A DNA stretch of 64,000 nt from Minisyncoccota bacterium (GTDB lineage Bacteria > Patescibacteriota > Minisyncoccia > Phycocordibacterales > GCA-2401445): NCBI GenBank assembly GCA_040879725.1, contig JBBDJV010000020.1, forward strand, positions 9,086 to 73,085, given 5' to 3'. How positions within the stretch are numbered: the first letter of the stretch is position 1; each line of letters starts with the position of its first letter. The translations under genes and the position numbers were made by a program. The notes beneath the pieces were generated by a model, which did no database searches, was not told where the DNA came from, and was given only the letters and a program-made list of their open reading frames with translations. Positions 3,589 through 59,575 of this stretch are shown here, one piece after another.

Positions 3589-3626
3589 AGGCGCAGTCCA
3601 GAAGTGGACTGCGCCCGTTCTCTGCT
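3589..3626 (-). terminator. GC hairpin GGCGCAGTCC-loop-GGACTGCGCC followed by a T-run on the minus strand
   Basis: 10-bp stem. On the minus strand it is followed by CTCTTTTTGTTTATG. Same stem as the copy at 3755-3800. Confidence 0.4.
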
Positions 3627-8825: not shown

Positions 8826-8852
8826 ATCCGCCTTATAGGCGGTTTTTTATTT
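8826..8852 (+). terminator. Rho-independent terminator after the GatB/YqeY gene
   Basis: CCGCC-TTATA-GGCGG hairpin followed by TTTTTTATTT. Confidence 0.7.
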
Positions 8853-8895
8853 CTTAGTCTAATTTGGTATAGGTACAGAACGAACAATCTACCCA

Positions 8896-8916
8896 GTACA
8901 AGGGGTCCCCTTGTAC
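8896..8916. repeat. Perfect 10+1+10 palindrome GTACAAGGGG-T-CCCCTTGTAC
   Basis: Seen directly; lies 10 bp upstream of repeat copy 1. Confidence 0.8.
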
Positions 8917-8925
8917 TATGCAATT

Positions 8926-8955
8926 TAAGTGCGCACGCCGGCGTGCGCACTTAAA
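8926..8955. repeat. Interspersed GC-rich palindromic repeat, copy 1 (core GCGCACGCCGGCGTGCGC at 8931-8948)
   Basis: 30-bp perfect palindrome TTAAGTGCGCACGCCGGCGTGCGCACTTAA followed by ATGGCTT. The same core recurs at 24586-24603 and 59357-59374. Confidence 0.85.
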
Positions 8956-9032
8956 TGGCTTAAAATAAGGTTCAAAAAGAACCAATTAACCCCTTGAGAC
9001 ACATTTAGACCTCGAATAAAACACCAATAAAT

Positions 9033-9059
9033 TGACTTTTATACTAAAAATGATATAAT
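9033..9059 (+). promoter_or_regulatory. Sigma70-like promoter with an extended -10
   Basis: -35 TTGACT (9033-9038), 15-nt spacer, then TGaTATAAT (9051-9059). Predicted TSS is about 9066, some 60 nt upstream of the small ORF. Confidence 0.55.
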
Positions 9060-9129
9060 TATATTAGTGAATACCTTACAAAGACGAGTCTCCCTTCGAG
9101 ACAAAGTCCAAAGGGAGTGTTTCCAAATC

Positions 9130-9246
9130 ATGCATTCTGTGGTCGAAGGAAAGATTACAGAAGAACGGGCTGTGGAGCTCATTCGTAAGGCTCAACAGCG
9201 CAAGGAAAAATTTTTCGGAAAAAAAGAAAACCAACCAGTTTTCTGA
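9130..9246 (+). CDS. Small 38-aa protein (MHSVVEGKITEERAVELIRKAQQRKEKFFGKKENQPVF), function unknown
   Basis: AAGGGAG Shine-Dalgarno 12 nt upstream of the ATG, with a promoter upstream and an intrinsic terminator downstream. It is below the ORF-track size cutoff. Confidence 0.5.
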   Translation: MHSVVEGKITEERAVELIRKAQQRKEKFFGKKENQPVF

Positions 9247-9270: not shown

Positions 9271-9296
9271 CGACCCAACAGTGGGTCGTTTTCTTT
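9271..9296 (+). terminator. Rho-independent terminator after the 38-aa ORF
   Basis: CGACCCA-ACAG-TGGGTCG hairpin followed by TTTTCTTT. Confidence 0.65.
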
Positions 9297-9541
9297 ACAC
9301 ACAAAACTGTCTCTGTTACACTTTATTTTGGAACCATTATGCTAAGCAACAACATCGTTCTCTCTCATTCGGACCAATCAGTTATACCGATTGGTATTCG
9401 CAGTGTTTACTGTGGTGGTATTGGAAAAGGTACTTCTACCCTTCCATTCAGACCATTCAAACAGGCACAAAGGAAAAACAAAGGGCGGAAGCGTTGGCCA
9501 TGTAAAACCCAACCCCAGAGTCAACACTGAGAAACTGAAGC

Positions 9542-19341: not shown

Positions 19342-19497
19342 CTATCGCTTCTTCTTAGCAGGCTTTCGCTTTGTTGTCTTCTTCGCAGCCTTCTTTTTTG
19401 CAGGCTTTCGCTTTGTTGTTTTCTTAGCCACCTTCTTCTTAGCTGGCTTTCGCTTAGCAACTTTCTTCTTAGTTGCCTTTTTCTTTTTTGCTGGCAT
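19342..19497 (-). CDS. Lys-rich histone-H1-like small basic protein (MPAKKKKATKKKVAKRKPAKKKVAKKTTKRKPAKKKAAKKTTKRKPAKKKR)
   Basis: ATG at 19497, stop at 19342-19344, and a terminator hairpin immediately downstream. It is built from about three imperfect tandem 45-bp DNA repeats encoding (T)KRKPAKKK units. It is in a different frame from the spurious SecA N-terminal extension. Confidence 0.5.
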   Translation of the reverse strand: MPAKKKKATKKKVAKRKPAKKKVAKKTTKRKPAKKKAAKKTTKRKPAKKKR

Positions 19498-23349: not shown

Positions 23350-24447
23350 CTACTTCTTCCACCCAAGAGCCTCAACAGGGACTATCACGTCTTCATCTAA
23401 ATCCTTTTCCGCAACCAAGCCATAAAGCTTTTCCATGTCTCGGGGCTTAATACCGGTCCCTGGACCTTTTATCGTAAACATATCTTTTGTGAGTACCTCT
23501 CCCTTTTTTATCACTCGCTTTGTCGCAACACTCTTTGCGAGCTTATCTCGTAGTGGCTTCAATTCTTCATGCATTGTTTTCCCTCCCTTTCCAAGAATTT
23601 TCTCAATACGGCGAATTGAATCAACGAGCTCTTTGAGTTCATGGGGTTCAAGAGACCCTGCATGGTCTGAACCTTTCATCTGCTTATCAAGCGTCAAATG
23701 TCGCTCCACTATAACCGCACCTCGTGATACCGCAGCAAGTGTCGGCAACAAATCTATTTCATGCCCGGAATACCCGACTGGCAGTGGATGAAAAGTCCTT
23801 TTCAGTGTATCCATAAATGCAAGCTCAATCATGTGCTCCGGAGACGGATAAAGTGAAAGACAGTGGAACACAACGACGCGGTTATTGTGCTTAAGTACGG
23901 TACTTACCGCATCTTGTATTTCGTCAAATGTATTCATCCCGGTAGAAATAAGTACCGGCTTATTCTTTTTGGCTATATATTCAAGAAGAGGAATATTTAT
24001 TGTATCGGCAGAAGGCACCTTGTAGGCATCTACATCAAATGACTCGAGAAAATCCGCGCTTCCCTTATCCCACGCACTTGCAAAAAAGAGTACTCCGTTT
24101 TTCTCAGCATACTTCTTCAATTCCCTGTACTGATCTTCATTAAACTCAAGTGCATCTCTGTGGGCTCCGTACGTAGGAGCAAATGCATTTGGAGATGTGT
24201 ATGGTTTATCGAGTCCTTCCTTGGTAAGAATTTCTTTCGTGGTACGCTTTTGAAACTTCACCGCGTCCGCGCCTGAATCACGCGCGACATCAATAAGTTT
24301 TTTTGCAATCTCCATATCGCCGTTGTGGTTAATACCCACTTCGGCAATAACAAACACGGGTTCCCCCGGTCCCACGTATTTTTTACCGATCTTTACTTTT
24401 TCAGGATGCCCGTTTAAAAACTGTTTAATTTTATCGAAAATATTCAT
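23350..24447 (-). CDS. neuB: NeuB-family nonulosonic acid synthase (Neu5Ac or KDN 9-phosphate synthase type) with a C-terminal SAF domain
   Basis: IAEVGINHNGD, KFQK and PSADTINIPLL motifs of the NeuB TIM barrel, plus a C-terminal antifreeze-like domain; 365 aa. Confidence 0.8.
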   Translation of the reverse strand: MNIFDKIKQFLNGHPEKVKIGKKYVGPGEPVFVIAEVGINHNGDMEIAKKLIDVARDSGADAVKFQKRTTKEILTKEGLDKPYTSPNAFAPTYGAHRDALEFNEDQYRELKKYAEKNGVLFFASAWDKGSADFLESFDVDAYKVPSADTINIPLLEYIAKKNKPVLISTGMNTFDEIQDAVSTVLKHNNRVVVFHCLSLYPSPEHMIELAFMDTLKRTFHPLPVGYSGHEIDLLPTLAAVSRGAVIVERHLTLDKQMKGSDHAGSLEPHELKELVDSIRRIEKILGKGGKTMHEELKPLRDKLAKSVATKRVIKKGEVLTKDMFTIKGPGTGIKPRDMEKLYGLVAEKDLDEDVIVPVEALGWKK

Positions 24448-24581
24448 GAATTTATACTACCAGAAACTACTTAAGTATGGAAGAAATATACATCCATACT
24501 CTCAAAATGAGTAGCAAATAATGCTTCTACACTGGAAATTTGAATACTACAGGGCAAATTCATGCCTTAACAAAGCCATTT

Positions 24582-24615
24582 AAATGCGCACGCCGGCGTG
24601 CGCATTTATTTTTAT
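24582..24615 (+). repeat. GC-rich palindromic repeat, copy 2 (core 24586-24603), with a T-run; terminator-like
   Basis: AAATGCGCACGCCGGCGTGCGCATTT followed by ATTTTTAT. The flanking 45 bp (24536-24581) match the flank of copy 3 in inverted orientation. Confidence 0.8.
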
Positions 24616-24703
24616 AGAGGTTTAACCTCGTTTGAAATAACTTAATTCAGAAGTCTTACTATATATCGTAAGAAATGCTTTTTGATCAAAGTAACTCAGT
24701 GGC

Positions 24704-25336
24704 TCAAAATAACCTTTGGTGTACCACTCTAAATTTTCTCCATAACCGATCGAAAAAAATGCGCACGTCCCACGTCCTACTGTTTAGCTTTTTAATGGAA
24801 AATTCTTTTGTCTCCGTATTGTATGTAAGGTGAGTAATTGAACACTCTTCCAATACCGGAAAATGATTTAACTGAAACTCGCGCTTCAAAAACGCACCGA
24901 ATGAAAGCGCGTGTCCGAAAATAATAACAGTCCCCTCTCCTTTTGAAATAGCATCAGCCAACACATTTCTAACTCTCATCCCCGCCATTTCCATTGACTC
25001 ACCAGATGGTGGAATAAAAACAAAGTCATCCATCACCTTCTTTTTCCACTCCTTAAACTCTTGCCCTGTATGACTTGTTGTAGGAGTATATTCGGAAAGC
25101 CTCTCATCTGTCTCAATACTCGCTTTTGGTAATGCAAAACGAGCAGTATCAAATGCGCGTGGAAACGGGCTACTTACTACTGTAGCCGGTAGAAGGTGTT
25201 TTATTCGTCTACCCACCACTTTCGCCTGATGCTTCCCAAGTGGGGACAAAGCTACCGCAGATGCTTCGGGGTACGGGAGATTTTCCCGAGACACTGTTTC
25301 TCCATGACGGATTAAATAGATATCAACTTTATTCAT
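24704..25336 (-). CDS. Histidine phosphatase family protein (phosphoglycerate-mutase-like)
   Basis: N-terminal IYLIRHGET catalytic motif. Confidence 0.65.
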   Translation of the reverse strand: MNKVDIYLIRHGETVSRENLPYPEASAVALSPLGKHQAKVVGRRIKHLLPATVVSSPFPRAFDTARFALPKASIETDERLSEYTPTTSHTGQEFKEWKKKVMDDFVFIPPSGESMEMAGMRVRNVLADAISKGEGTVIIFGHALSFGAFLKREFQLNHFPVLEECSITHLTYNTETKEFSIKKLNSRTWDVRIFFDRLWRKFRVVHQRLF

Positions 25337-38161: not shown

Positions 38162-39295
38162 CTATGCAATTTTATGTATTATCTCAACAATATCTTCAAC
38201 TGTTGCTAATCGAGGATTATTCATTGCTCTTTCTGCAGAATATTCATCCAGTATAGCATTTTTCGCATCAGCGATAGAAATACCATAATCACGCAAACGT
38301 GTTGAAACCTGAATTGATTCGAAAAACGATTTAAGGGAATCAGCATAGAGAGCATTTTTGCTTCCTGTTATAAAAGAACCCATCTGCTCTACTAAATTAC
38401 GGACATACAAATAACCCCTTGGGTCACTACATGAATTAAGGGTAACTCCTAGATTAAACATAAAAACCTCGGGAAGAAATAGCGCGACAGCTTTTCCGTG
38501 CGGAATTTTATATCGAGATGTTAAGGGATATGACAGTGCATGAGCTAATGTTGTTTTCGTAATATTGATCGCCTTTCCTGCACTATGTGAACCTTGTGCA
38601 ATATTTACTAAAGCATCTTTATCTCCACCACACGCAAGGTAAAGATTTTTATACAAAAGTTTAAACGCATTTTCTGACAACAAAAGAGATTCCTTACTAG
38701 AATTCACCGACCACCACGACTCAATAGACTGACAAAAAGCGTCCACTCCGCTAGCTGCAGTCACTTCCCACGGAGATGAAAAAAGAAACTGAGGATCAAC
38801 AATTGCGTACTCCGGCAACATTTTTTTATCTGCACAAGAGTATTTTTTACCTTTAATATATAAAACGGCAAAATGGGTTGATTCGCTACCCGAACCGGCT
38901 GTTGTTGGGACCGCAATAACTGGCACAGCACTTGTTTTTTCTATACTAGCACCATAACTCACCTCTGAGATTTGCTCTGGCTTATCAGCAAACAAACTAA
39001 TCAATTTCGCCACATCAATCACACTCCCCCCACCAACTGCAATAATTACAGACGAGGTATGTTCACGATATTTCATAACACCTTTCAAGAGATCATCTTC
39101 GGAAGGGTTGATTGAAAAATCATTAAATACTTCAACTTTATAAGGAGCTACGAGCGACATGATTATTTTACGTGCACCCGATGTCTCAAAAGAATTTTTG
39201 CTCGTGACTAAAAAAATATTTTTTACCTTCTGATCTAAAAGAATTTGCGATAAGTGTTCTGTTGAATTTACACCAAAATAACTTTTTTGATTCAT
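38162..39295 (-). CDS. Group III iron-containing alcohol dehydrogenase (candidate phosphonoacetaldehyde reductase)
   Basis: GGGSVIDVAK NAD motif and the Fe-ADH His/Asp pattern. It lies adjacent to ppd and ppm. Confidence 0.6.
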   Translation of the reverse strand: MNQKSYFGVNSTEHLSQILLDQKVKNIFLVTSKNSFETSGARKIIMSLVAPYKVEVFNDFSINPSEDDLLKGVMKYREHTSSVIIAVGGGSVIDVAKLISLFADKPEQISEVSYGASIEKTSAVPVIAVPTTAGSGSESTHFAVLYIKGKKYSCADKKMLPEYAIVDPQFLFSSPWEVTAASGVDAFCQSIESWWSVNSSKESLLLSENAFKLLYKNLYLACGGDKDALVNIAQGSHSAGKAINITKTTLAHALSYPLTSRYKIPHGKAVALFLPEVFMFNLGVTLNSCSDPRGYLYVRNLVEQMGSFITGSKNALYADSLKSFFESIQVSTRLRDYGISIADAKNAILDEYSAERAMNNPRLATVEDIVEIIHKIA

Positions 39296-39306
39296 CTTTT
39301 CAATAC

Positions 39307-40440
39307 TTATTTTTTATTGAGAAATTCCATCAAATCTTTCTTATTTTGATTGGGAGGAATTGTAGGACGACCTAAATCAGATCGTGCTCCTTTTTTAGTT
39401 CGTATTTCAATAAAAATAGGACCTGTGTTTGGTTTACTATCCTTAAAGATTTGTGAAATAGCACTATCAGTATCTGCGTAATATACTTCTTTATAACCAC
39501 ACGCTCTCGCAATTTCACAAAAATTTACAAAAAATCCAGCTGTTTTTTGACCCCCTACTGATTCATGCGCACCATTATTGAACACAATATGTACAAAATT
39601 ACTTGGATGAAATTGACCTATAGTTGCCATTCCACCCAAATGCATAATTGCAGCACCGTCACCATCAAAACAGTAAATATTTTTATTTGGCTTACTTAGT
39701 GCTAAGCCCAATGCGATTTGGGAAGCATGACCCATTGATCCAATAGTCAGAAAATCACAGGCATGACCCATAGATTTCGCATGTCGTATCTCAAACAATT
39801 CACGGGAAAGTTTTCCTGTTGTTGAAACAATCACAGAATTTTTTGGAATTTCCTCTACCACTGAAGTGAGAGCTTGTTCACGTGTAAGTGTGTATTTCTC
39901 CTCTGACTTTGGCTTTGCATGTTTCTCAGCTGAAAATGTGCCTTTGCGAACAAGCAAAGCATGAGGTCTGCATGTTTTCTTTATAGAATCCAACACAGCA
40001 AGTAACTCTTTCGCTGCTTTTTTTTCATCTGACGATAAAACGGTATGAGGTACATTAATTGCATTAAGCACTGCGGGAGTTACTTCACCCATAGTTATAT
40101 GTTGAGGTTCATCACTCACCCCAGGTTCTCCTCTCCAACCAATAAGTAGCAGTGCTGGCATACAATATACCTTCTCGTCCAGAAGCGAGGTTAGAGGGTT
40201 AACTGCATTTCCTAAACCAGAATTCTGCATATATATGAGAGGAACTTTCCCGGTCGCCAAATGATGTCCAGCAGCGATACCAAGTGCAGAGCCTTCATTC
40301 GCGGCTATGATATGTTGGGATGGGTCCAATGTTACATCTATATGCTCACAGAAATCCTTTAAGAGTGAATCCGGAACTCCGGTAAAAAGGTTTACATCAT
40401 TCTCCAAAAGCAATTTTAGAAAAAAATGGGAAGAAATCAT
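39307..40440 (-). CDS. ppd: Phosphonopyruvate decarboxylase (ThDP-dependent)
   Basis: N-terminal FTGVPDSLLKDFC is the Ppd/AepY signature, with a ThDP-binding GDGAA...NNG region; 377 aa. Confidence 0.75.
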   Translation of the reverse strand: MISSHFFLKLLLENDVNLFTGVPDSLLKDFCEHIDVTLDPSQHIIAANEGSALGIAAGHHLATGKVPLIYMQNSGLGNAVNPLTSLLDEKVYCMPALLLIGWRGEPGVSDEPQHITMGEVTPAVLNAINVPHTVLSSDEKKAAKELLAVLDSIKKTCRPHALLVRKGTFSAEKHAKPKSEEKYTLTREQALTSVVEEIPKNSVIVSTTGKLSRELFEIRHAKSMGHACDFLTIGSMGHASQIALGLALSKPNKNIYCFDGDGAAIMHLGGMATIGQFHPSNFVHIVFNNGAHESVGGQKTAGFFVNFCEIARACGYKEVYYADTDSAISQIFKDSKPNTGPIFIEIRTKKGARSDLGRPTIPPNQNKKDLMEFLNKK

Positions 40441-40445
40441 ACAAA

Positions 40446-41783
40446 TTATTTATTCTTTTCATGATTACCTTCAATCAAGGTCAATATTTCTTTGATAGAC
40501 ATGCAATATTTTTCTGAAGCCTCCTTTGACCTTCCATTTTCTAAAATAGCACGTGCGGTGTTAACCATTGCGGGGTAAGCACTTCGAAGTAAATGATTCG
40601 CATAAATAACTATCCTGAAGCCCATTTTCTCTAAATCTGTCTCGTTAAGATGGTTATATGTTGTAGGGACCGCAACAAGTGGAGTGTTGCTTCCAAACTC
40701 CTTATATTTCTTACAAAACTCTTCTATTTCATCAATTTTTTTATCTTTACTATGTATCATTATTCCATCAGCTCCAGCAGCTATATACGCCTTCGCACGC
40801 TTAAGAGCATCATCTACACCTTTACCTAAAATCAAACTTTCAATACGAGCAATGATCATGAAATCTTCAGAAATACGAGCATTCCGACCCACAGCGAGCT
40901 TCTCACAGAAATTTTTTATACTTTCCAATTCCTGTTTAACAGCAGTACCAAACAAGGAATTTCTCTTCAAACCTTTTTTATCTTCAATAATAACCGCAGA
41001 CACGCCCAGCCGTTCAAGTGTTTTTACTGTATAAGGAAAATGCTCAACTAAGCCACCTGTATCGCCATCGTAAATTACAGGCTTGGTAGTAATTTCCAAA
41101 ATATCATGCAGTGTACCAATACGAGATGTTAGATCTACCAATTCAATATCAGGCTTGCCTTTCATAGTCGAATCAGTAAGGCTACTTAACCACATAAAAT
41201 CAAATTCTCTCACAACACCCTTTTTCTCAATCTGCGTATGTTCAGCTATAAGTGCCGATAAACCACTATGAGCTTCAATACCTTTTACTATTGCCTTTGC
41301 GTCTAACAACCGTCTCAATCTTGATATCCTAACACTTGGTGTAACACCAACTTCTTTTAATGCCTTATTGAGCAATGATGACGAAATACCTTCAGTATAA
41401 TTTGGCTCAACCAATACCCCACCCCATTCTTTTAGTAACTTAACAACCTGTGCACGCACCTCTTTTTGAATCCCCTTTTTCCAATCATCACCATGCACAA
41501 CAACATCAGGTTTAACCTTTCTTAAATTTGAAGAATAGTCGAGTGTTTCTTGAGGGATCACTTCACTGACACCAACTATACTCGAAACAATCTCCTTCCT
41601 CTGTTCATATGATAAAAAAGGTAGTCTTTTGTAGCTTGCGATAGCTTTGTCTGTAAGTAGGCCGACAATAACTCTCCCATGTTTTGCACCCTCACGAATA
41701 ATTTTTAAATGGCCAGGATGTATTAAATCAGCACTCATTCCTATGTATACTATCTTTTCTCCCTTTTGTTTTATTTTATTCAT
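40446..41783 (-). CDS. ppm: Bifunctional cytidylyltransferase / phosphoenolpyruvate mutase fusion
   Basis: N-terminal cytidylyltransferase fold ([15 protein letters not shown] HxGH motif). The C-terminal PEP-mutase/ICL-superfamily barrel carries the PEP-mutase-specific [11 protein letters not shown] motif. Confidence 0.75.
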
Positions 41784-52446: not shown

Positions 52447-53609
52447 ATTTTTTTGATTGAAAGACATAGTTCCATAAAATCTCCAGCAAGTCTATCCCAG
52501 CTATATGTTTCAACCGCAAGTCGTCTCCCTGCTTCGGTAATACTCTTTGCGTGTTCAGGTATTTGCATAAGTTCACTTACCGCGTGAGCAAGCGCCCCGG
52601 GATTATCCGGTTCCACCAAAATACCGGTAACTCGGTCCTCTATAAAATCAACTATCCCACCTACTGGTGTTCCGATAACCGGCAGTCCCGCAGACATTGC
52701 TTCAACAAAAGAATTTCCAAACCCTTCAGACCGGGACGTACGCACAAAAACATCGCTTGCGTGAAGATACTTTGGCAACTCATCTTGCGGAATAGTTGGC
52801 ACAAAATGAACCCTATCAAGTACACGCAACTCTCGCGCTAGCTGTGAAAGCGAGGTTCCCAACGGTCCACTTCCAACAATAAGTACGTGTACTTTTTTAT
52901 TCAGCAGAGGAAGAGTACGTACTAATGTATCAAGTCCGTTTTTATACACCAAACGCGACGTACTCACGAGCACATACGCGGAAGTGGGAATATGAAACTT
53001 CTGACGCAATGCATGCTTTTCCACCTCTGAAGCTCGCGCGGTAAACAGAGAAACATCAACTCCGTTTGGAAGTAGTGTAATAGGCGCTTTGGTGTCAGTC
53101 GCTTCCGCGCGCTTTTTTAAGTAGTTACTGATAACAGTAATGTGTGTTGCGGACCGTATAGGAAAATAGTGGAGCGGTCGAACTAAAAAGCGAAAAAGCA
53201 AATCATTGTTGAATACGTACCGTTTGAGATGTACTTCATCATCTCCCTCTTGCAGTGTGAGAATAAAACTTTTTTTATTTCTCATCCTGTGGAAAAGCGC
53301 TCCCGCAAGTCCTCCGAAACTTGCCATAATACCCCAAACACAATCATATGAAATGTGTCGCGAACGAATGAGAGCAACAAAAAAACCAGTCACCGGAAAT
53401 AGGTATTTATCGATAGGGTGTCCAATACCAACCCTTCGTACAGATACGGAACCGATTTGTTCATGCTTTGAGAGTGCTCGAGAATAGCGCGGAGTAAGCA
53501 TGTCAAAAGCAATACGTTCTTCGGGGATACGTTTTGTTAATTCATGAACCGCAATTTCCGCCCCACCTATGTGGGGAAGATAGTCCGTACTAAAAATTAA
53601 GATTTTCAT
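52443..53609 (-). CDS. GT4 glycosyltransferase
   Basis: N-terminal STDYLPHIGGAE and C-terminal RSEGFGNSFVEAMSAGLPVIGT. Confidence 0.7.
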   Translation of the reverse strand: MKILIFSTDYLPHIGGAEIAVHELTKRIPEERIAFDMLTPRYSRALSKHEQIGSVSVRRVGIGHPIDKYLFPVTGFFVALIRSRHISYDCVWGIMASFGGLAGALFHRMRNKKSFILTLQEGDDEVHLKRYVFNNDLLFRFLVRPLHYFPIRSATHITVISNYLKKRAEATDTKAPITLLPNGVDVSLFTARASEVEKHALRQKFHIPTSAYVLVSTSRLVYKNGLDTLVRTLPLLNKKVHVLIVGSGPLGTSLSQLARELRVLDRVHFVPTIPQDELPKYLHASDVFVRTSRSEGFGNSFVEAMSAGLPVIGTPVGGIVDFIEDRVTGILVEPDNPGALAHAVSELMQIPEHAKSITEAGRRLAVETYSWDRLAGDFMELCLSIKKI

Positions 53610-55117
53610 TCCTCTTCTATAATATCGTACTCTTCGGCTTCTTTCACCTCCTTATGTTTACTAAGTTGTAATGCAAAAACAGGAATAACCGACAGCGCCA
53701 CGAGTCCGATAATCCACCAGACTATACCACCCTCTCTACCCTCTGTCATACTATATGGAACTCCCGCAGTAAGAGTGCTCGTGGAGCCTGTATTTGTCTC
53801 TTCATCGGTTTCACTTATCTCACTATCAGTGTCTTCCTCTGCTTCTGTATTTTGGGGCGCAGGCGCGGAGCCTGCCTCCGCGCCCGCGCTTGGATCAACC
53901 ATTTTCGCAACTGCAACTTTTCTTTGAGTAGGAGCGCTTGCCTGAGGTCTGGAAGATATAGGAACTTCTTTTACCGCTCTGTATTCCGCAACAGGAACAC
54001 CTAGCGTGTCATGAAGCTGTACTGTTTTTCCTTGTGTTATCGGAAAACCAAAAACATATGAACCGAAAGGAGTTGATTGGTATGAAGAAAGAATACTCCT
54101 GGGAGGAAATGCGAACATTTGTTCACCTACATGAATACTCCATGAAGTAATGTCTATTGGATGCTGTGATTCGTTTTTCAACGTAACATACCCGTTAGTG
54201 CCGTACGTAACATCTTCAATAACAATCGTAGGACGCACTACTGTGACAATTACCTGATCCACAGCGTTGTATTCACCGGATGAAACAGAGAGAACGGCGG
54301 TATACTGACCAGGGTAGTGGTAGCGATACAGAATATTTTGTCCCTCAACAAACGTCCCATCTCCCAAATTCCATGTGTACCTAGCAGTTGTAAGTGCTTC
54401 ATTCTGAAACCCGTATCCACGTCCGTGAAAAGTTACCTCGCTTCCCACAAAAACTGTTTTTGAGCTTCCCGCATCTGCGGTTAATCTTTTATTTCCCGGT
54501 TGAAGCAGAGGAACGGAACCATTCCCTTCTCCAGAGTTTTCCTGTGAGCTGTTTTGATTTGTACTTCCTGAATTAGTCTCTTCGTCTGACTCTGTTGTTT
54601 CTTCCGGAAGAGCATGATGGCTATTTGCACTTCCAGGTGTCGGAGCACCCACTCCCCAAGTGCCTTGTAGCATCTGTAGTGTATTACCATCTCCATTTTC
54701 TCCAAGATTTGTGTCATACGTAACCTCGAAGAGAACTGTTTTATCGCCGTCTGCAAGTGAAAGAGTCTCTCCATCATTTTTTAATGAAAACGAACTATCG
54801 AACAACACACCACTCCACCCAGGATTATCACTAAGAAATGTTTGTGCGTCATCCGCAATAACAGCGTAGCTACCTGCTTCCATCTGTGTTCCACCTTGGA
54901 ATTCATGTATACCGTGATACACACCTCCTTCAAGAAAGGTGTACTCGGTAAGTGTGAGTGGTTCTGTTGTGTATACCTCTATCCATTCATGCTTCCCATC
55001 TCCTCCGGGGAAATCATACATAATTTCTGTTATCGAAAGAGACGCGTGAGAAAAAAGCGGAACGATGTACAGTGCGAAACTAAAAATTATTATAAAACTA
55101 TTGCGAGTCCTCACCAT
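53606..55117 (-). CDS. Cell-surface protein: signal peptide, lamin-tail domain, acidic linker, PKD domain, second LTD-like domain, C-terminal TM anchor
   Basis: SITEIMYDFPGGDGKHEWIEVYTTE is the lamin-tail-domain signature. YTWNLGDGT...YPGQYTAVLSVS is a classic PKD motif. The C-terminal WWIIGLVALSVIPVFAL helix is followed by a KHKE basic stop-transfer. Confidence 0.6.
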   Translation of the reverse strand: MVRTRNSFIIIFSFALYIVPLFSHASLSITEIMYDFPGGDGKHEWIEVYTTEPLTLTEYTFLEGGVYHGIHEFQGGTQMEAGSYAVIADDAQTFLSDNPGWSGVLFDSSFSLKNDGETLSLADGDKTVLFEVTYDTNLGENGDGNTLQMLQGTWGVGAPTPGSANSHHALPEETTESDEETNSGSTNQNSSQENSGEGNGSVPLLQPGNKRLTADAGSSKTVFVGSEVTFHGRGYGFQNEALTTARYTWNLGDGTFVEGQNILYRYHYPGQYTAVLSVSSGEYNAVDQVIVTVVRPTIVIEDVTYGTNGYVTLKNESQHPIDITSWSIHVGEQMFAFPPRSILSSYQSTPFGSYVFGFPITQGKTVQLHDTLGVPVAEYRAVKEVPISSRPQASAPTQRKVAVAKMVDPSAGAEAGSAPAPQNTEAEEDTDSEISETDEETNTGSTSTLTAGVPYSMTEGREGGIVWWIIGLVALSVIPVFALQLSKHKEVKEAEEYDIIEEE

Positions 55118-56993
55118 TGATCACTTTTTTCAAAGTTTCTTCTGATATTTCTCTCTTGGTAGTAGACGCTTCTTTATCTGATTCTTTTTTCCCTTGTTCT
55201 TTACCTATTTGTTCCGTTTGATTTGGTTCTTCACTGTTCTGTTCATTTGGAGTATTTTTTAGCAGTGACGCCAAAGCACTTCTTAACTCATTCTTCTTTT
55301 CTTCACTTGGACCTTTAGTGTCTTGGAAGACACGCTGTTTCTCTTTCTTCTGAAGAATTGTAAGCGACAAAGGTTTGTCTTGTTGCTCTGGTGTGGCAAC
55401 ATTTTCTTGTGTGTGCTCGGTGGTATTTTGATTTGAAGAATGTTCTGAAAAATGTTGCGAAGAGTGTTCTGGATCCTGCGCAAACGTCAGTGGTGTTGCG
55501 GGAGTTTTGGGCATATTTTGCTTGCGAATGAAGTTGTTTTTACTCCCAGTATCTTTTTGATCATATCGAGGGCGAGCGGTGTTTGGTGCACTCTCGCTAC
55601 CGTGCTGTCGGTTATTTCTGTCGTTTTGTACTCGACGGTCCTGGCCATTTCCTTGCGAAGATTTTGCGGGAGCGGACGTAGGAGCAAGAAGTACTCGAAC
55701 CTCATTTTCAACAATCGCTCGAGGTCGAGAAAACGCTTTTCGCGATATCTCAATTATTTCTTCTTTCTGGCTTATTTCAGGTCGAGGGATCGGAGGAATG
55801 GTTCGCGCTGAAAATGGCTGAGAACCCACACCGTCAATCATGAGTTTTAGATATATTTGAGCAAAATTGAGATTTACCAAATCTTCTGCGAGGAACGTAG
55901 GTGAAAATTCTTTTTCGAGTGTTTCCGCATCGTATGCACCCACACGAAAGGTTATCATTGTACCCACGTTTCCAAAAACCGCAGCGCGAACCTCTTCGGA
56001 CATCTGCTCAATGTACTGATGCGCCATTGTGAGATTGAGTTTATATTTTCGAGCTTCAGATAGAATGTCTGCAAATGACTCGTTTGCAAAAGACTGAAAC
56101 TCATCCACGTAGAGATAGAAATTAGGAAGATCTTTTTTCAGCACACCTTCATCAATATCCGCTCGAGACATTGCTGCTAGGTATATTTTAGTAATAAGCA
56201 TTGAGCCAATAAGGTTTGCATTCGCTTCACCCACTCGCCCCTTTGAAAGGTTTACGATAATTATTTTTTTCTCGTCCATCATTTTTCTCAGATCAAATGA
56301 TGACTTTGGCTGTCCGATAATATTCCTGATAAGCGGGTTTGAGGTAAACTGTCCTACTTTGTTTTGGATAGCAGGTGTTGCTTCCGCAGTAAAACGGTCA
56401 GTATAGTTTGCAAACTCATCTACCCAAAAAGCTCGGACAGACGCGTCTTGTATATTATCTACCACTTTTTTTCTAAAGTGTTTATCCGAGAGCATCCTGT
56501 TTACCGAAAGAAGAGTGGCGTTTGGATATTCCAGAAGTGCTAAGAGCGTATTGTTTAAAATGTATTCCATGCGGGCGCTCCACGCATCAGCCCAAATCTT
56601 CTTAAACGTTGACATAAGACCAGAGACAACCAAATGGCGCTTGTCATACCCTACGTCTTCCATAATGTTAAATGAAATAGGGTTTTCCAAATCAAAAGGA
56701 GCGAAATACATAACATCCTGTCTTCGCTCTTGCGGAACATAGTCGAGTAAAAGATCAGCAGTCTGACCGTGCGGGTCGATAAATGCCATACCTTCACCAT
56801 TTTTCATGTCCTGCACTGCCATGTTTTCAAGCAGTGTGGATTTACCCATGCCCGTTTTCCCTATCACATAGACATGACGGGTTCGGTCTTTTGCTTTAAT
56901 GCCAAAGGGAATGCATTTGTTACGTGCATCTGTCTCGGCAAAATAGGTTACTCGCTCTTCGTTATACATTAGGTTTAGTATATCACTATACAA
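55098..56993 (-). CDS. VirD4/TraD/TraG-type (type IV coupling protein-like) P-loop ATPase, soluble, with a 220-aa disordered polar C-terminal tail
   Basis: Walker A VIGKTGMGKST and Walker B FYLYVDEFQSF. The LTMAHQYIEQM...FGNVGTMITFRVG block matches the T4CP C-terminal (TraG-D_C-like) pattern. TTG start at 56993, with an alternative ATG at 56969. Confidence 0.5.
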   Translation of the reverse strand: MYSDILNLMYNEERVTYFAETDARNKCIPFGIKAKDRTRHVYVIGKTGMGKSTLLENMAVQDMKNGEGMAFIDPHGQTADLLLDYVPQERRQDVMYFAPFDLENPISFNIMEDVGYDKRHLVVSGLMSTFKKIWADAWSARMEYILNNTLLALLEYPNATLLSVNRMLSDKHFRKKVVDNIQDASVRAFWVDEFANYTDRFTAEATPAIQNKVGQFTSNPLIRNIIGQPKSSFDLRKMMDEKKIIIVNLSKGRVGEANANLIGSMLITKIYLAAMSRADIDEGVLKKDLPNFYLYVDEFQSFANESFADILSEARKYKLNLTMAHQYIEQMSEEVRAAVFGNVGTMITFRVGAYDAETLEKEFSPTFLAEDLVNLNFAQIYLKLMIDGVGSQPFSARTIPPIPRPEISQKEEIIEISRKAFSRPRAIVENEVRVLLAPTSAPAKSSQGNGQDRRVQNDRNNRQHGSESAPNTARPRYDQKDTGSKNNFIRKQNMPKTPATPLTFAQDPEHSSQHFSEHSSNQNTTEHTQENVATPEQQDKPLSLTILQKKEKQRVFQDTKGPSEEKKNELRSALASLLKNTPNEQNSEEPNQTEQIGKEQGKKESDKEASTTKREISEETLKKVINGEDSQ

Positions 56994-59154: not shown

Positions 59155-59575
59155 TGCGGTTGGGGTTTCTTTTTTAAAAAATTAAATAAGTTTTTAAACG
59201 AGATTTTCTGAACGAAATTTAACCTCGTTCAAAAAAATCCTGAGGTTTAACCTCAGGAAAAAAACCTCATGAGAAAAGTAACAGATATGACAACCACCAT
59301 AGATGCAAAAAACCCCAGGTGTACCGATATATCGGTACACCTTTATAAAAATAAATGCGCACGCCGGCGTGCGCATTTAAATGGCTTTGTTTAGCCATGT
59401 ATTTACCCTGTAGTATTCAATTTCCTACTGAACGAGATTAAACCTCGTTCAGAATTAGCTATATATAGCAACGTATTTTTCTCCCGAGGTTTAACCTCGC
59501 TGAAAAGTTTAACCTCGCTGAAAAGTTTCCTGAGGTTTAACCTCAGGAGAGAACCTTGGAGAATACGTATTCGTA
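59155..59575. repeat. Repeat- and hairpin-dense convergent intergenic region, including GC-palindrome repeat copy 3 (core 59357-59374)
   Basis: Contains several GAGGTTTAACCTC-type inverted repeats: 59209-59231, 59239-59257, 59428-59452, 59486-59498 and 59539-59557. Also contains tandem 18-mers GTTTAACCTCGCTGAAAA (59489-59524), the palindromes CTCATGAG and GAATACGTATTC, and two stacked minus-strand terminators (59357-59374 with a T-run; 59317-59342 followed by GGGGTTTTTT). Confidence 0.8.

Follow-up and report, generated by a model that had tools for sequence, protein, structure and literature searches.

A candidate REP/BIME-like family of short polar extragenic palindromes in a Paceibacterota genome

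The REP and BIME elements of Enterobacteria and Pseudomonas are GC-rich palindromes of ~30-40 nt that are strictly extragenic, lie at the ends of transcription units, are polar, and occur in both orientations. They form mosaics with other short motifs, are lineage-specific, and can stop or buffer transcription. REPs are imperfect palindromes, number in the hundreds, and are associated with a GTAG/GTGG-type head beside the palindrome and with RAYT genes. Other described systems share part of this design. Intrinsic and bidirectional terminators combine a 12-bp GC stem and a 4-nt loop with a preceding A-tract and a following U-tract. The Correia elements of Neisseria and MITEs such as RUP and BOX are intergenic modules of ~100 nt that are present or absent between relatives, form RNA hairpins, and affect transcript ends. 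In Neisseria and Haemophilus, inverted pairs of the 9-10-mer DNA uptake sequences (DUS/USS) act as terminator-like hairpins downstream of genes, although most of these sequences are solitary and occur at about one per kb. CPR bacteria are thought to rely on DNA uptake as well.

In this study, we analysed a 64-kb stretch of DNA (hereafter the window) from the small genome of an uncultured, ultra-small CPR bacterium (Candidatus Paceibacterota MAG). A GC-rich palindrome recurs in it at three intergenic sites. This palindrome shares with REPs and BIMEs the likenesses listed above, including the mosaic arrangement, as nine hairpins are packed into 350 nt around its third copy. However, only three copies were found in ~66 kb, the palindrome is perfect and loop-less, there is no GTAG/GTGG-type head beside it, and the window contains neither a Y1_Tnp/RAYT gene nor any other transposase, recombinase, or DNA-binding gene. 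Copies 2 and 3 have the stem, loop, and tract design of an intrinsic terminator, but the sequence is reused at three loci with shared flanks, copy 1 has no U-tract, and that of copy 2 faces a strand without a gene. The element resembles the Correia elements and MITEs in size, location, presence or absence between relatives, and its potential to form an RNA hairpin and influence transcript ends; in contrast to them, neither terminal inverted repeats nor a recognisable target-site duplication were seen to bound the 95 nt over which copies 2 and 3 are homologous, and the element has no known parent IS. A target-site duplication would also be shorter than the 49-nt direct repeats that surround the copy-3 mosaic. 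A pair of DNA uptake sequences was also considered and rejected, as the half-site is never solitary in the window. On balance, with somewhat better than even confidence, we regard the three sites as one short, polar, extragenic, REP/BIME-like family that is private to its lineage and serves as a stop or insulator hairpin at transcription-unit borders. Our full-text literature searches yielded no account of REP-like repeats in CPR bacteria or Patescibacteria. The finding is genuine but modest, descriptive, and fairly ordinary.

The initial annotation had reported an 18-bp GC palindrome at three intergenic sites of a GC-poor genome. The positions and the intergenic location held exactly: the 18-mer GCGCACGCCGGCGTGCGC has precisely three exact copies in the window, at 8931-8948, 24586-24603, and 59357-59374. 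The palindromes themselves are longer than described, and the genome, with ~40% GC, is not extremely poor in GC. Extended without a loop, perfect self-complementarity covers 34 nt in copy 1 (8923-8956) and 28 nt in each of copies 2 and 3 (24581-24608 and 59352-59379). Against the three observed copies of GCGCACGCCGGCGTGCGC, none is expected; 100 dinucleotide-preserving shuffles yielded no match, and allowing up to three mismatches added no further site in the window. When read in one orientation, all three copies, which are present in both orientations, share a polar 36-nt core, TAAR-TGCGCACGCCGGCGTGCGCA-YTTA-AAATGGCTT. When the window was searched without filters, a covariance model of this core recovered only the three known sites, with the next match at E=0.85. 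Perfect matches to the half-site TGCGCACGCC in the window are confined to the six arms of the three palindromes; there is no solitary half-site, and the two matches with one mismatch are at chance level. No degenerate copies of the element were found in the window either. The 'family' is thus a very small sample, with n=3 copies visible in the ~66 kb inspected.

As RNA, the core is predicted to fold into a GC-rich hairpin of 12-15 bp with energies from -17.8 to -22.4 kcal/mol (z -3.7 to -5.6). The lone difference within the stem, an A-T pair in copies 2 and 3 that is replaced by G-C in copy 1, is compensatory but not significant (171 of 500 shuffles, n=3 sequences). The centre of the palindrome (CCGG) is self-complementary in the element copies, unlike the non-complementary loops of the terminators of unique sequence at 3590, 9542, 19297, and 62574 of the window. 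Such a centre is not needed for an RNA hairpin and would fit DNA-level recognition or a template-switching origin equally. Each copy is also paired with a different second hairpin 5-9 nt away. One might suppose that the sites are independent, ordinary intrinsic terminators that are alike by chance, as they have GC-rich stems in A/T flanks at gene 3' ends and copy 3 is correctly placed behind rsmI. However, an identical 20-mer is present at all three loci and 95 nt are common to two of them, which excludes convergence. Furthermore, every other terminator in the window is unique in sequence, and copy 1 follows an existing terminator and has no T-run. We therefore consider chance resemblance extremely improbable.

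Copy 1 (8923-8961, plus strand) consists of the palindrome ATTTAAGTGCGCACGCCGGCGTGCGCACTTAAAT around the 18-mer, followed by the polar tail GGCTT. Its RNA hairpin has 15 bp and is the most stable of the three, at -22.4 kcal/mol (z -5.6). The second perfect palindrome that had been noticed beside it is real and occupies 8895-8917; it reads AGTACAAGGGG-T-CCCCTTGTACT, has arms of 11 nt, and lies 5 nt from the GC palindrome. The upstream gene, yqeY on the plus strand, has its own canonical terminator at 8828-8842, so that copy 1 stands 80 nt behind a gene that already bears one, and no T-run follows copy 1 on either strand. It also lacks the 45-nt flank part found in the other two copies. Downstream, at 9032-9059, there is a strong sigma-70-like promoter that would drive two small conserved ORFs.

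This downstream region deserves a few observations in its own right. The promoter is near-consensus, TTGACT-16-TATAAT with TG, and ends 7 nt 5' of the GTG of the first ORF. The two ORFs, of 59 aa (9067-9246) and 63 aa (9339-9530), look like leaderless small-protein genes, and the numbers of the NCBI proteins (MEX0931897 to 898) suggest that neither is annotated. Both have counterparts in GCA_964436015.1 (locus L006, 12760-13260, minus strand), one of which is a 61-aa ORF that begins 9 nt after a TATAAT. A non-coding RNA at 9290-9540 was considered and dropped, as the stretch looks unconserved in the DNA alignment with the relative and its translation is that of a conserved small protein of ~60 aa.

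Copies 2 and 3 are related over a much longer distance than their palindromes. The initial annotation had noted an inverted flank of ~45 bp shared by these copies; the homology is in fact larger, as the two form an inverted pair of 95 nt (24530-24624 versus 59336-59430) with 89% complementarity. Within this pair, a 48-nt block, AACAAAGCC...TTTTTATA, is 100% identical, and the differences are confined to the outer flank. The copy 2 module (24530-24624, plus strand) comprises the flank GAATACTACAGGGCAAATTCATGCCTTAACAAAGCC, the 28-nt palindrome, and then TTTTTATA, and is terminator-like on the plus strand, whereas its polar tail AAATGGCTT is read on the minus strand. Its companion, 8 nt from the GC palindrome, is the 13-mer palindrome GAGGTTTAACCTC at 24617-24629, which has a 6-1-6 structure. 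Copy 2 is flanked by two minus-strand genes: the stop codon of a histidine phosphatase gene is at 24704, and a NeuB-family gene, whose promoter region adjoins its ATG, starts at 24447. As the initial annotation had pointed out, there is no upstream gene on the plus strand here; the T-run that follows the stem therefore belongs to a strand without a gene, while the gene-bearing strand offers a weaker U-rich tail, UUUAAAUGGCUUUGUU. The stretch in front of NeuB (24448-24470) contains TATAAA ~3 nt 5' of the ATG, its counterpart in the relative (locus L009, 5975-6003) contains TATATA, and the stretch is conserved in both, a pattern that suggests a leaderless NeuB mRNA.

The copy 3 module (59336-59430, minus strand) is inverted relative to copy 2, with its palindrome followed by TTTTTATA on the minus strand. 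It lies ~200 nt after the stop codon of rsmI (minus, 59576), and a 91-aa ORF on its other side converges with rsmI. On the minus strand, copy 3 is the first of four stacked hairpins, each a stem with a T-run. The second of these stacked terminators is its companion, hairpin c (59317-59342, minus), a 26-nt zero-loop palindrome AGGTGTACCGATATATCGGTACACCT followed by GGGGTTTTTT. Copy 3 is the only one of the three that is surrounded by a convergent gene pair. With two copies elsewhere and 95 nt common to copies 2 and 3, the sites do not have the character of a plain bidirectional terminator that always follows convergent genes and has no shared flanks. They are rather a composite repeat unit, as had been proposed, and a repeat family with shared flanks instead of three unrelated terminators.

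The surroundings of copy 3 form the most elaborate of the three arrangements. The mosaic of nine hairpins extends over 350 nt, from 59204 to 59553, and five of these hairpins are of the 13-mer type: a (59204-59236), b (59238-59258), a' (59428-59452), e (59485-59499), and b' (59528-59548). The mosaic also contains TTGCTATATATAGCAA at 59456-59471, a tandem repeat (18 nt x2.2) at 59489-59528, and two direct repeats of 49 nt, 59215-59263 and 59505-59553, that are 84% identical. The inverted repeats of the GAGGTTTAACCTC type that had been noticed near copies 2 and 3 proved to be real and restricted to those two intergenic regions, where 13 strand-hits stand against 1.5 expected; one further match, at 41507, has two mismatches and is chance-like.

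Taken together, the stability of the hairpins, the placement of copy 3 as a terminator, and the structure of copy 2 lead us to read the elements as duplicated terminator or insulator modules. A terminator scan found the stem and U-run of a textbook intrinsic terminator in two of the copies: copy 2, on the plus strand, and copy 3, which follows rsmI on the minus strand. The original statement that each copy is followed by a T-run accordingly applies to these two strands but fails for copy 1. A terminator role is clear and well supported for copy 3 alone; it is inferred for copy 1, which has no U-run, and for copy 2, whose U-run faces a strand without genes. Copies 1 and 2 present the same order of parts along the direction of transcription, namely the end of the upstream gene, the companion hairpin, the GC palindrome, AAATGGCTT, and the promoter of the next gene. 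When transcribed, the hairpins would terminate or insulate transcription at the borders of units; at copies 1 and 2, they would separate the end of one gene from the promoter of the co-directional gene that follows. The family may have spread by duplication, by recombination, or through some trans-acting enzyme, and further copies would be expected elsewhere in the genome.

The same arrangement could also be viewed at the level of duplex DNA, and this is the main rival to a stop or insulator hairpin. The palindrome may be a protein-binding site, i.e., an operator or a site for a recombinase or an architectural protein, that is bound by a dimer in an 11-6-11 parse, with the hairpin being incidental. 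The self-complementary centre, which gives zero-loop palindromes of 28-34 nt unlike the terminators of unique sequence in the window, would fit such a site, as would the perfect conservation of the core beside drifting flanks. Moreover, copies 1 and 2 are situated ~40-75 nt upstream of promoters (for copy 2, in the sequence at 24448-24530), and copies of the element bracket a glycan cluster. However, no regulator or recombinase gene is nearby, the genes on either side of copy 3 converge and leave no promoter for it to regulate, and GCA_964436015.1 has the same genes but not the element. A particular version of this idea, a Xer/dif-like site, was considered and rejected. The XerC arm of E. coli dif, GTGCGCAT, resembles the palindrome arm, and an 11-6-11 parse is possible; but the likeness has the wrong polarity with respect to the centre, as GTGCGCA points away from it. 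Moreover, the centre is GC-rich (GCCGGC), and a XerD arm of the TTATG type is missing. We regard a duplex DNA site as unlikely, and the stop or insulator hairpin as the better description of the three copies.

As the conserved 45 nt precede a strong terminator and there is no upstream gene in that orientation at copy 2, the modules might instead be paralogous small-RNA genes of ~80-90 nt with their own terminators, transcribed inward to the glycan cluster from the plus strand at copy 2 and from the minus strand at copy 3. The 95-nt modules do fold better than shuffled sequences (z -3.2 and -4.5). However, neither is preceded by a sigma-70-like promoter, the sequences upstream of the two are unrelated, and a promoter is not part of the unit, since the homology between the copies starts ~12 nt before GAATAC. 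The four substitutions between the copies alter the predicted upstream hairpin rather than keep it, and copy 1 is entirely without the 45-nt part. There is also no Rfam match to the modules, at either the gathering or the E-value level, and the generic hairpins around copy 1 are far below gathering; in the whole 64-kb window, neither a tRNA nor a gathering-level Rfam match was found. A 24-nt probe from the 45-nt flank was unmatched in the JGI metagenomes, and neither the core motif nor its model has a counterpart in the relative. The suggestion of a small RNA gene that carries its own terminator was therefore not borne out, and we consider it quite improbable.

The distribution of the element is consistent with a recent origin. 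Protein searches identified GCA_964436015.1 as the closest relative found (RsmI 78%, SecA 80%, and NeuB 89% identical; others at most 72%). This genome is labelled as an uncultured Candidatus Saccharibacteria bacterium, whereas the proteins of the window and most of their homologues are labelled Paceibacterota/Parcubacteria, and one of the labels is probably wrong. This relative keeps the gene order of the window over all three sites but has the element at none of them. At site 1 there are two GAGGTC[C/G]GACCT[C/T] palindromes (L006, 13267 and 13323) but no GC palindrome. Site 2 (L009, 4600-4720) contains GGAAAAA x8 and AGAGATT(A/G)GAGAT repeats, a plain bidirectional terminator, and an extra gene of 378 aa without a Pfam match, and at site 3 a stretch of ~80 nt that holds a single ordinary terminator (L005, 10732-10762) stands where the window has the 350-nt mosaic. 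A check for insertion polymorphism, as had been recommended, thus shows that the relative is empty or different at all three orthologous positions.

Searches of wider collections gave the same picture. The palindrome with its A/T flanks has no match in 185,579 species genomes, among them the genome of GCA_964436015.1, and none in the JGI metagenomes or the viral contigs of IMG/VR. No sequence in 73 kb of related loci matched the covariance model of the core, and a six-frame peptide search for copies mis-called as genes (977 word candidates) returned none with E <= 10. Because all of these scans were empty, the family is untraceable outside its source MAG, and on comparative grounds the element appears to be private to this Paceibacterota lineage and young. 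Its absence at the three sites and from the whole genome of GCA_964436015.1 makes gain and duplication after the split from that relative the most probable course, as opposed to a loss there, with a single outgroup available for the comparison.

In the window the 13-mer palindrome reads GAGGTT[T/A]AACCTC, and in the relative GAGGTC[C/G]GACCT[C/T], a compensating change of TT..AA to TC..GA at intergenic sites that are not orthologous. The 13-mer type may be a hairpin or operator motif that is present throughout the clade at shifting positions, and hairpin repeats do turn over in the clade, because a related 13-mer type is found at a non-orthologous position in GCA_964436015.1. The same relative has two loop-less palindromes of 26 nt with the core CATACGATATATCGTATG (L005, 4296-4321 and 4725-4750) that bracket a gene of 128 aa; they may be operators of this gene, whose product gives a weak Trp-repressor-like match. 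Hairpin c (GTACCGATATATCGGTAC) and TTGCTATATATAGCAA of the copy-3 mosaic share an ATATAT-centred design with these palindromes. A reading of the ATATAT-centred palindromes as NrdR boxes was considered and set aside, as there are no nrd genes nearby. A 17-mer of hairpin b has two matches in IMG/VR, one at a single site and one in a 60-nt tandem repeat of an unrelated viral contig of 122 kb (UViG_2706795441_000001; L008, 1200-1746), in every unit of which CTGAGGTTAAACCTCAG occurs. The viral matches are probably coincidental.

A surface-glycan and phosphonate pathway, set between murB and murC/murD, is encoded in the 34.7 kb that separate copy 2 from copy 3. Among its genes are those for glycosyltransferases, a Glyphos_transf protein, a flippase, a TPP decarboxylase, an Fe-ADH, and a fusion of PEP mutase with a cytidylyltransferase. 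Three of them form a phosphonate trio at 38162-41783 (the Fe-dependent alcohol dehydrogenase, the TPP-dependent decarboxylase, and the cytidylyltransferase-PEP mutase fusion), which suggests phosphonate-decorated surface glycans. At the edge of the cluster (53606-56993), a VirD4/TrwB/HerA-like ATPase of 631 aa is encoded beside a protein with lamin-tail and PKD domains; this pair is conserved in GCA_964436015.1 (L005, 12931-16237), with no relaxase or other type IV secretion genes. Outside the cluster, at 19348-19485, a tandem repeat (42 nt x2.6, also with 15- and 30-nt periods) lies 5' of the annotated start of the 842-aa SecA, inside an ORF of 905 aa, and if translated, it would give a Lys/Ala-rich N-terminal extension.

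The position of the 95-nt inverted pair, which includes 48 nt of perfect identity and brackets exactly the glycan/phosphonate cluster, raises the question of whether this pair serves as the terminal inverted repeats or recombination sites of a mobile or invertible segment of 34.7 kb (24.6-59.3 kb), i.e., a glycan island. The GC content does fall to 0.355-0.38 at 32-48 kb. However, in GCA_964436015.1 this cluster occupies an unchanged position and orientation, with the gene order kept over both borders and the repeats absent, and the NeuB-RsmI distance there is 34.8 kb versus 35.1 kb here. Given this agreement in distance and synteny, the cluster is ancestral and not a repeat-bounded island. 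The GC skew is negative throughout both borders, the window contains no integrase, invertase, transposase, or recombinase, and copy 1 is unrelated to the cluster. An invertible segment or genomic island is thus largely refuted by the synteny, the uniform GC skew, and the lack of a recombinase in the window, and we hold it to be very improbable.

Two assemblies made independently, the NCBI MAG contig and the Logan contigs of SRR27977663, both contain the sequence, which is therefore not an artefact. The Logan contigs, built with k=31, end inside or beside each of the three palindromes. The palindromes hence fragment short-read assemblies at these points, which matters for the contiguity of MAGs. 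One of these contigs (L003) ends at 59398, 36 nt earlier than the structure of the shared block requires, and two of the four differences between copies 2 and 3 fall at 59392-59397, close to this end. The early end could reflect gene conversion or population polymorphism between the copies, or merely coverage. A wider reading would combine these observations into a REP/BIME system of CPR bacteria in which the palindromes and the GAGGTYNRACCTC 13-mers are gained, lost, and reshuffled by a trans-acting enzyme and insulate the glycan operons, with the stop of L003 marking gene conversion; we consider this extended version rather doubtful.

If the narrower reading as a REP/BIME-like family of stop or insulator hairpins is true, reduced CPR genomes also generate and spread non-coding modules. 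A hairpin family at operon borders, including both borders of the glycan cluster, would help to show how transcription units are delimited in such genomes.
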